Notes under the pieces: model-generated | Database searches by the model: none | What the model was told of the DNA's origin: nothing | What the model saw: the letters and a program-made list of their open reading frames with translations, nothing else | NCBI GenBank assembly: GCA_963697165.1 | Contig: CAVOMX010000007.1 | Coordinates: forward strand, 1 to 15,187 | DNA from: Candidatus Bathyarchaeota archaeon | Lineage (GTDB): Archaea > Thermoproteota > Bathyarchaeia > Bathyarchaeales > Bathyarchaeaceae | Direction: 5' to 3' | DNA length: 15,187 nucleotides | Position numbers and translations under genes: made by a program | Shown: one piece after another, positions 1 to 2,575 of the stretch | Numbering within the stretch: position 1 is the stretch's first letter | Layout of the letters: the number at the start of each line of letters is the position of its first letter

Positions 1-284
1 TATCATTTTAACCTAATATCGATTAGGAATACGCACCCATCAACGAATTGATAATCAACTGAAATTATTATCTGTTTTCTATATTTTCACAAAAATATCT
101 ACTATTAATTCGTTTGCGAATTTGACAGAAATTTGTTGTATGTCAAATTTTCATTGTAATTTTCAGACAATGAATATTTCACCCGGTTATCCTTATTTTG
201 ATATTCCAAATAAAACTTTTAAAAAAATTTATTTCTGTTAACTTAATTGAAATTTTCTTTAATAGGAAATTAACTTACATAAGA

Positions 285-514
285 ATGGGAAAATATTTAT
301 TTAACTATCCAAAAAATGATCATACAGAAGCTATTATGGTAATTGATAAAAAATTACAAAAATTGAAAACTCTTCCAACAGTAGATTCTAAATGCTTTAA
401 ATGTAAGGGAAAAAAGCAGAAACATGGACCTTTGATTTAGGATCTAAAGACAATTCACAAGCAATATTCTTTCGATGCACCAGTTGTGGCTATACTTGGC
501 GCGAAATCGATTGA
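285..514 (+). pseudogene. TFS/RpoM (TFIIS-like) C-terminal zinc-ribbon paralog split by a -1 frameshift (pseudogene, programmed frameshift or sequencing error)
   Basis: ATG285 gives MGKYLFNYPKNDHTEAIMVIDKKLQKLKTLPTVDSKCFKCKGKK. The -1 frame from 416 gives AETWTFDLGSKDNSQAIFFRCTSCGYTWREID*(514). The joined product matches the TFS C-ribbon pattern LPT..CxxC...F(Y/F)RCxxCGYTWRE. The junction is A_AAA_AAG at 410-416. Confidence 0.85.
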
Positions 515-552
515 AAGATAAAAAAAAATAAATGGGTTGGGAGAGTATGGAC

Positions 553-783
553 TTATGCGCAGAGTTTGGTATCCTCCAGCTTTTGTAGTGACCACTCAGG
601 CAAATGGTCACACAAAACGTCTCCATGCAAAAAGACCCTAAAGCCAAGCTGTTAGGCGCGAAACAAAAACAACTGATCATGAACCCCAATAAACCTTCTA
701 TACTCATGCTCATCCCAAACAAAACGAAGCTTTTCCAAGACTCGTCGATGAATCAACGCGGGGTGGTAATAAGTTGAGTGCAT
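553..783 (-). pseudogene. Remnant of the C-terminal part of a GT2-like (GT-A fold) glycosyltransferase with an internal stop
   Basis: The minus frame 759->553 reads ALIHRRVLEKLRFVWDEHEYRRFIGVHDQLFLFRA*QLGFRVFLHGDVLCDHLPEWSLQKLEDTKLCA*. This resembles the GT2 pattern 'LIrReVfekigF...eD..f..Ra...Gfki......c.H'. Internal TAA at 654-652. An in-frame ATG lies at 783, but no N-terminal GT domain is visible. Confidence 0.55.
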
Positions 784-811: not shown

Positions 812-999
812 ATGGTTGTGTAAGTGAAGTTTGATTACAGCAGGTGTATCTGGTGCAGAAAATGTATTGAAGTGTGTGTTTTTGGTGTTTTAGAGTGGTT
901 CGAGGAGCAACCTATTGCCGTAAATCCGTGCAGATGTTCAGCGGGTTTAGAATGTATAGGTCAAGCTGTCCTGTTGATGCTATAAGTGTGAAAGAATAG
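812..999 (+). pseudogene. Degraded 2x[4Fe-4S] dicluster ferredoxin
   Basis: ATG812 gives MVV*VKFDYSRCIWCRKCIEVCVFGVLEWFEEQPIAVNPCRCSAGLEC. After skipping 2 nt at about 956 it continues RSSCPVDAISVKE*(999). The first CxxCxxCxxxC motif is intact. The second reads CSAGLEC...CP (Cys to Gly). Other lesions are TAA at 821-823 and the 2-nt frameshift. Confidence 0.85.
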
Positions 1000-1079: not shown

Positions 1080-1239
1080 TTACCATTCAATGTCATTTTC
1101 CGCGATTTTGGTCCAGCATTTTCTGCATATGGGGAGGTGCTTGTTTCTGTAGTAGATGTAGACTTCAATGTCTGATATTTTTGCATTTTACATTCCATGG
1201 ATTTTTACAGTTTTCAACTGCTTTAGTTAAGGTTGCCAT
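1080..1239 (-). pseudogene. Small (~52 aa) Cys4 putative zinc-binding protein with a +1 frameshift
   Basis: ATG1239 gives MATLTKAVENCKNPWNVKCKN. After one extra base at about 1176 it continues SDIEVYIYYRNKHLPICRKCWTKIAENDIEW*(1080). The span is 160 nt (3n+1). A TATA-like TTTTAAAT lies upstream at 1279-1272. Confidence 0.65.
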
Positions 1240-1542
1240 TGTGAATCCGTGTCTCTTGATGAGTAGGTATCATTTAAAATCCTCGACGTAACGACATCCT
1301 ACTGAGGGGAGAGAACAGTGAAAGTAAAAAAGGAATCAGGCAAACCCAAGAAGCTCTAATGCAACTCTCCACATTGGATTATGATTCTCTCATTTTTTAG
1401 ATTCACAATTAACATTACCCCACCTGCACTGTAATTAAATTAAGCGCAAGTATTCCCTGAAGTATCACATAATAAGTAAAAAAAAAAGCGTAACTTGAAC
1501 AAAAGAACATATTCTAATGAACAGTAGAGGGGGATTGTTGAA

Positions 1543-2575
1543 TTGAATGGTCGGCCAGAAATAGATGAGACCGACGTGAAGATTTTGAAGATTTTGCAGG
1601 CTGATCTACGTACAAGCTACTCCCAAATAGCAGAAACATGTGAAACGTCAATTGATAAAGTGAGAAGAAGATACGAACAATTACGAAAAGAGGGCGTGAT
1701 AGTTAGCGAAGTAATGGGTTTTCATCCAAAGAGCAGAGGGTTCGAGTGCTTCGCCTGGATTGGAATCATCACGCAACCTGGAAAGGAAAAATATGTCTTG
1801 AAAACCTTAGAAGAAGAATCAAAATTATCACAAAACTTTGTTGAAATAGGTACATATAATATCCGCTGTTTAGTGATGCTTAAAAGCATAGATGGTTTGC
1901 CGGATTTTGTTGATGCTTTAAAGAAAAATCAGTATATAAATAACGTTGATGTGATGATTTGGACTAATATTGAAGAAATGGCATATCCAACAAACCTTGT
2001 GATCAGACCATTCCCGGCAGCAACAAATAACGACGAATCAGGGGTTATCAAAGATATCAAGATCAGTTCAAAATTTATTCAAAAACAGAAAGGAAAAAAT
2101 ACAATACAACAAAAAGCTTAAGACAAAAGATCCTAAGTTTGATTTAATCGACCAGACAATAATGAGAGTTCTGTCATTAAATGCTCGGACAACCTTTAGA
2201 ACTATCGCCAAGCAACTGGGAATTTCAACTAAAACAGCAATTTTAAGATATGAAAAATTAAAGAGAGATTGGATTTGGTATTCCACGCTATCATTAAATT
2301 TTGAGAAACTTGGCTATGCAGGGCATGTAAGTTCCTTGATTAAGGTTTCAAACAAAAATTGGGTGTCAGAAGTTTTTAGCCAATTAATCCAGATTCCGAA
2401 TGTAATCGTTGCCATGCGACTACTTGGTCCATACGACATTGATGTTCTTAGTCCTTTTTCAACCACCTCGGAACTAATGGATATTAAACAAGCAATTTCA
2501 GAAATTCCCGGCATCGAAAGAGTGAATTACCAAATTGGAGAAAGTCTAGTATGGCCACCTCTACCAACTTTCTAA
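1543..2575 (+). pseudogene. Tandem (double) Lrp/AsnC-family transcriptional regulator interrupted by a +1 frameshift
   Basis: ORF 1543-2121 has the Lrp HTH (IDETDVKILKILQADLRTSYSQIAETCETS) plus a RAM domain. The frame of ORF 2162-2575 is open from 2003. It encodes KDPKFDLIDQTI upstream of ATG2162, so helix 1 of the second HTH precedes that ATG. The span is 1033 nt (3n+1). A GAGGGGGA RBS-like sequence precedes TTG1543. Confidence 0.75.

Follow-up and report, generated by a model that had tools for sequence, protein, structure and literature searches.

A probable relic of a TFS paralog in a Bathyarchaeota genome and the non-D-E TFS clade of its intact parent

The window analysed here, a 15,187-nucleotide stretch of contig CAVOMX010000007.1 from a Candidatus Bathyarchaeota archaeon, contains at 306-514 what is very probably a pseudogene, namely a 5'-truncated, frameshifted duplicate of an intact two-ribbon TFS paralog located on contig C18 of the same genome (Table 1). 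The copy likely makes no working protein. The window feature is an ordinary gene relic, and the actual lead is the parent clade, whose members lack the canonical D-E pair at the hairpin tip.

Window positions 289-568 share 94% DNA identity with the C18 paralog (263 of 281 columns), and unbroken identity begins at 306, which corresponds to parent codon 47, leaving the first 46 codons and one A absent from the window copy. A sequence-only reading had recognized a TFIIS-type C-terminal zinc ribbon running across the 285-440 ORF and the 407-514 frame. This ribbon is present, and the second frame alone matches PF01096 (29.5 bits, cut-off 21, E 6.6e-7); the 51-aa ORF holds only the first CxxC of the C-ribbon and gave zero Pfam matches on its own. 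The proposed product of about 76 aa arises only when the two frames are joined over the base lost from the A run (410-415). The hairpin register was read correctly, with D-N where the canonical TFS proteins of the genome have D-E.

Comparison with the intact C18 gene shows that the absent N-ribbon, the frameshift and the extra Lys all belong to the copy. The N-ribbon is indeed absent from the window, because the copy is truncated at its 5' end, but it is no family trait, as the C18 parent has one. The "added" Lys in the tip (DLGSKDN in the relic, DLGSEDN in the parent) is likewise present without being inherited: codon 446-448 differs by a single G-to-A change from that of parent Glu94, and the Lys is a private change of the relic at the family's most conserved tip residue. 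The likeness to TFS4 that had been drawn from this Lys is thereby lost, the parent tip being S-E-D-N. Overall, the ribbon residues and their register stand, whereas a single gene product and an added Lys as a family trait do not.

Over 66 codons the relic and its parent differ by five nonsynonymous and no synonymous substitutions (positions 338, 390, 433, 446 and 507). This 5:0 pattern has P 0.33 if neutral and 0.017-0.048 at omega 0.2-0.3, and with so few substitutions the test carries little weight on its own. Taken with the frameshift and with the extra frameshifts in two of the three copies of the allele, it speaks against purifying selection on the window ORF.

Table 1. Features of the window and TFS-family genes elsewhere in the genome
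Feature	Position	Strand	Basis or remark
AT-rich intergenic DNA, non-tfs	1-304	.	Window 1-313 has 91% identity to G003:C3
35-bp motif with fortuitous ATG (285), ends at tfs junction	273-307	+	Repeat copies
51-aa ORF	285-440	+	7 upstream-DNA codons, parent residues 47 to ~83, out-of-frame tail
Relic of 3' part of C18 TFS paralog (residues 47-115)	306-514	+	Alignment to parent
A run (410-415), one base fewer than parent; A AAA AAG in upstream frame	410-416	+	
Second frame, 35 aa, without own start codon	407-514	+	Hairpin and last CxxC
3' flank copied with gene	515-568	+	6 mismatches in 54 bases, ungapped
Next relic, fragment of a gene also at C8 and C9	566-777	-	In-frame stop here
4Fe-4S ferredoxin-like gene	824-999	+	Split by 2-base insertion near 955
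Intact parent TFS paralog, 115 aa	C18:8543-8890		Both ribbons, 8 Cys, tip DLGSEDN
Canonical D-E tfs gene	C8:23446-23775		QTRAGDE
Canonical D-E tfs gene	C24:8036-8380		QTRGTDE

The ATG and first seven codons of the 51-aa ORF consist of unrelated upstream DNA, and the junction falls on a TA (306-307) common to both partner sequences. The 35-bp AT-rich motif ending there occurs four times in the genome (window 273-307 and G000 C6:61274, C16:56150 and C17:82320) and again in genome G003 (L050:3383). It is possibly a recombination site or a promoter-like element; it showed no clear fit to the consensus patterns of an integron, dif or transposon end. In a contig from run X1, another upstream sequence, identical in its last bases, is fused to the tfs paralog at this very position. 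In G003, the counterpart of the window's left end is found immediately upstream of a divergent clpB-like gene and runs on into different sequence. As the upstream DNA of this gene is the window's left end, a clpB-like gene probably lies just beyond the end of the window's contig. Genes of this kind, bacterial in appearance, were seen at L050:3694-6291 (G003) and L051:2784-5408 (G019), and we take them to be clpB-like from reading the translation, not from a family scan.

An exact search for the junction in metagenome contigs matched one stretch, L049, which agrees with the window copy in the junction, the lost A and four of its five substitutions, and in which one extra A upstream brings in three in-frame stops. 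Downstream, L049 retains the parent's next gene, from which we infer that the duplication first carried more DNA. In a contig from run X2 that covers window 53-688, a base is missing at 287, so that the frame shifts immediately behind the ATG; another contig of this run carries the 5' part of the gene in intact form. The A loss is found in all three junction-bearing copies seen, and L049 and the X1 and X2 contigs share it. That the truncated allele is found in several assemblies means that it has persisted, a point against the relic reading. The window itself may derive from one of the L049 and X2 data sets. Both neighbours of the relic are broken as well, one by a stop (566-777) and one by a frameshift (824-999), which supports a decaying neighbourhood. 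In the sequence of events that we propose, a rearrangement would have fused unrelated AT-rich DNA to parent codon 47, the observed one-base loss and five amino-acid changes would have come after the fusion, and the downstream DNA would have been replaced at about 568 in this lineage.

Other parts of the window and its repeats have features of their own. The 566-777 fragment, from a gene with further copies at C8 and C9 that we read as glycosyltransferase-like, has very high contig depth in run X3, possibly a sign of a mobile element. Two Lrp/AsnC ORFs at window 1543-2575 look like one double-domain gene with a frameshift near 2080-2120. Window 1080-1330 is 68-86% conserved in about 19 of 24 genus relatives and has no listed ORF of at least 50 aa.

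It is highly improbable that the window copy is expressed through programmed -1 frameshifting at A AAA AAG as a single-ribbon modulator. The heptamer, a classic -1 slip motif, sits in the right frame, archaeal frameshifting is reportedly documented in fucA1, and L049 and run X2 have the truncated allele too. However, the heptamer arises automatically when one A is lost from the parent's run, no stable structure lies downstream of it (172 of 200 shuffles fold equally well, z +1.09), and two of the three copies have an additional frameshift upstream of the slip site. Neither is the ATG at 285 conserved, G003 reading AAG there, and the relic's changes strike the most conserved tip Glu. The N-ribbon, by which TFS4 is anchored on jaw and lobe (PMC8448823), is absent from the window copy. 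An assembly or binning artefact behind the frameshift or the entire copy would suit a one-base homopolymer difference near a contig end in a genome that is 81% complete with 2.9% contamination. We nevertheless give this explanation very little credence, as L049, an independent metagenome contig, has the junction, the lost A and four of the five changes as well, and the X2 contig spans the region in a run that also has the intact 5' part of the gene, even if either may share its source with the window. A decayed duplicate of the C18 gene hence remains the preferred reading.

Of 75 candidates scored in the genome, four exceed the PF01096 cut-off. A canonical tfs, whose presence elsewhere in the genome the sequence-only reading had proposed to confirm, is present twice, on C8 and C24. 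Two canonical D-E tfs genes also occur in most genomes of this genus, and genomes of genus g21 have up to four to six TFS-like matches. The parent gene is present in 6 of 25 genomes of this Bathyarchaeia genus, always intact (107-115 aa), and is under purifying selection, with pairwise omega values in the intact GSEDN family of 0.056-0.31 in 9 of 15 pairs (five of the others are saturated and one has a dS of 27). The loop between the second and third Cys of its C-ribbon has 24 residues, the same as in canonical TFS, and the net charge of this ribbon is -2, compared with means of -0.9 in 21 S-E-D proteins and +1.8 in 93 D-E proteins. Its fold model is TFS-like (pLDDT 67, pTM 0.35) and uninformative on tip geometry; the closest solved sequences and folds are Rpa12, Rpc10, Rpb9, archaeal TFS and TFS4. 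A single RNA run gave 0 contigs on the parent locus, a result that says nothing about its expression. Relatives of the parent were sought in viral_contigs, where none of 14 pattern matches was confirmed, and in a phage collection, where none was found.

Among the 150 matches listed of 824 from a profile search of 50%-identity representatives, 89 had a D-E tip, 57 had a non-D-E tip and 4 were not scorable. The parent belongs to a wider non-D-E clade marked by E-x-W ahead of the hairpin. In a tree of 62 hand-picked rows, the 24 chosen clade members form one branch (support 97/85), which is kept when the hairpin columns are removed, with one extra protein inside (95/91). A profile of 36 clade members gave 258 matches, of which the best 120 were examined and 119 could be scored. 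In none of these 119 does Q-T-R or D-E stand at its canonical position, which is partly a matter of construction, since the profile was built from such proteins. A Glu seven residues past the Trp (Trp+7), the residue turned to Lys in the relic, is present in 116 of the 119, again among the best 120 of 258. In the same set, the hairpin loop has 24-25 residues, about half of the proteins have a lone tip Glu, and 57 have an acidic pair out of register, either D-E two places earlier (about 31) or E-D (about 26). The tips vary by subgroup (G-S-E-D-N, G-S-E-G-T, A-D-E-T-I-H and A-N-E-T-I-H), and the N-ribbon Cys are conserved in at least 90% of the 36 aligned clade proteins. The clade also extends to other families within the class (genomes G124, G116, G187, G369 and G374); a phylum-wide search at E 1e-30, a cut-off too strict to indicate absence elsewhere, added one further member, that of G187. 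A canonical D-E TFS accompanies the clade member in all 11 genomes where one was seen. Database labels of the members are only "RNA polymerase subunit M", "TFIIS" or "RPA12/RPB9/RPC11 family".

These homologs speak against the single-ribbon family that had been suggested. At least two N-terminal CxxC motifs are present in 118 of the 119 scorable proteins among the best 120 of 258 matches, a sample that under-counts short forms, and all five genus relatives are full length. Seven database forms of 72-79 aa start at internal residues, one of which, P0031 (matching C18 residues 38-115), looks like a late start call, and a search for forms of 30-47 aa gave no candidate. The homologs have likewise retained acidic residues in the tip, E-D in the case of the parent, as expected if the window holds a decayed copy. 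Full-length homologs, acidic tips and decay of this copy are outcomes that the sequence-only reading had itself named as refuting it. What survives of the idea of an undescribed RNAP modulator is that D-N was inherited from a real and conserved non-canonical paralog family, and a possible modulator therefore exists, not in the window copy but in the C18 gene and its clade.

Further non-D-E TFS types were observed in the class. One has the tip H-L-G-S-L-E-Q or the related K-K-L-E-E (L054:6006-6347 in G024, L053:4281-4625 in G019 and L163 in G413), groups with the canonical TFS of the class, apparently of separate origin, and is located near an MscS-like gene in G024 and G019. Another has a 29-residue hairpin loop with G-[DET]-H-A-G-[IV]...E-R and no D-E (L170 in G116, L171 in G413, L167 and L172 in G344).

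The tip of TFS decides between cleavage and inhibition (PMC5715097), and D and E position the metal for cleavage (PMC7111264). The N-ribbon and linker of TFS4 bind jaw and lobe and its C-ribbon binds the funnel (PMC8448823). By analogy, we hold it about evenly balanced whether the parent competes with canonical TFS in the RNAP secondary channel. Its N-ribbon and linker would dock on the polymerase jaw and lobe, as in TFS1 and TFS4, and its hairpin of normal length would enter the secondary channel. As it lacks the Q-T-R..D-E arrangement, the parent would stimulate transcript cleavage poorly or not at all, and would thus act as a competitor of the two canonical TFS and dampen elongation or rescue. 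TFS1-AA impairs processivity and Gfh1 inhibits via acidic tip residues (PMC5715097), and the behaviour expected of the parent would be closer to that of the TFS-AA mutant or Gfh1 than to that of the lysine-tipped TFS4.

The shifted acidic pair in 57 of the 119 proteins (best 120 of 258) fits residual cleavage activity and argues against a competitor. It is nonetheless unlikely that the parent family is a variant cleavage factor that uses the shifted Glu, whether as E-D or as D-E two places earlier, under special conditions. The near-invariant Trp+7 Glu with its frequent acidic neighbour, the unchanged hairpin length and a C-ribbon that is not basic would suit such a factor, but canonical Q-T-R or D-E is missing throughout, albeit partly by construction, about half of the proteins have a lone Glu, and the gene is patchy within the genus and always found alongside canonical TFS. 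A non-catalytic accessory of the Rpb9 kind, with the N-ribbon on jaw and lobe and the C-ribbon outside the pore, appears quite unlikely. Rpb9 (5x4z_I) has D then a non-acidic residue at the same place and, according to a 2022 review, cannot stimulate cleavage (PMC9501531), and the N-ribbon Cys are conserved in the clade, yet the near-invariant tip Glu suggests that the tip has a role and patchy presence fits a core subunit poorly. A role of the parent family away from the polymerase is improbable.

Setting the competition reading in a wider frame, the clade may tentatively be viewed, at somewhat less than an even chance, as a Bathyarchaeia-own class of secondary-channel RNAP regulators with a full-length hairpin and a displaced, near-invariant Glu, which would have arisen independently of TFS4 and would inhibit or retune the polymerase through an acidic tip, in a manner like that of Gfh1/DksA in bacteria. 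If so, TFS, of which the class has two or more other non-D-E types as well, would have diversified there into a group of factors that modulate transcription globally. Repeated duplication of tfs is known in archaea, but a 2017 survey gives a single TFS for the only Bathyarchaeota genome it covers (PMC5715097). A search of the literature on TFS paralogs and Bathyarchaeia, with most subscription papers and bioRxiv supplements outside its coverage, found no paper describing the clade, and the accessible portion of PMC13257274 has no mention of TFS; the parent clade is apparently undescribed. The parent family matters because the 2022 review names only two direct inhibitors of archaeal RNAP, TFS4 and the viral RIP (PMC9501531).

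Compared with archaeal TFS/TFS1 (TIGR01384) and TFIIS domain III, the parent shares the two-ribbon layout, with 115 aa and a 24-residue loop, and is about 37% identical to the C24 TFS of its genome, but D-L-G-S-E-D-N replaces Q-T-R..D-E. It scores 50.3 bits against TIGR01384, below the cut-off of 64.75, whereas the two canonical TFS of the genome score 75.8 and 66.8. The window copy departs further, being frameshifted and without the N-ribbon, and the two ribbons are found in the parent only.

Eukaryotic Rpb9 also has two ribbons and an Asp followed by a non-acidic tip residue, as in the parent. However, Rpb9 is a fixed Pol II subunit and the parent gene is accessory and patchy, and the similarity of their tips is probably convergent. 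Like TFS4 of Sulfolobales (NF047723, PDB 7oqy), the parent is a two-ribbon protein without the catalytic D-E that exists beside canonical TFS. TFS4, an RNAP inhibitor induced by virus, has a shortened hairpin and 2-3 basic residues that are required for inhibition (PMC5715097), whereas the tip of the parent is full-length and acidic (S-E-D-N) and its C-ribbon is not basic; the TFS4 model NF047723 gave no match to the parent at E 0.01. Bacterial Gfh1 and DksA are acidic-tipped secondary-channel factors that inhibit or modulate rather than promote cleavage (PMC5715097, PMC8448823). The analogy is functional only, as these factors are coiled-coil and not zinc ribbon proteins and are not homologous to the parent. 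A second independently evolved TFS paralog with a displaced acidic tip would test whether D-E register or mere acidity governs the choice between cleavage and inhibition.
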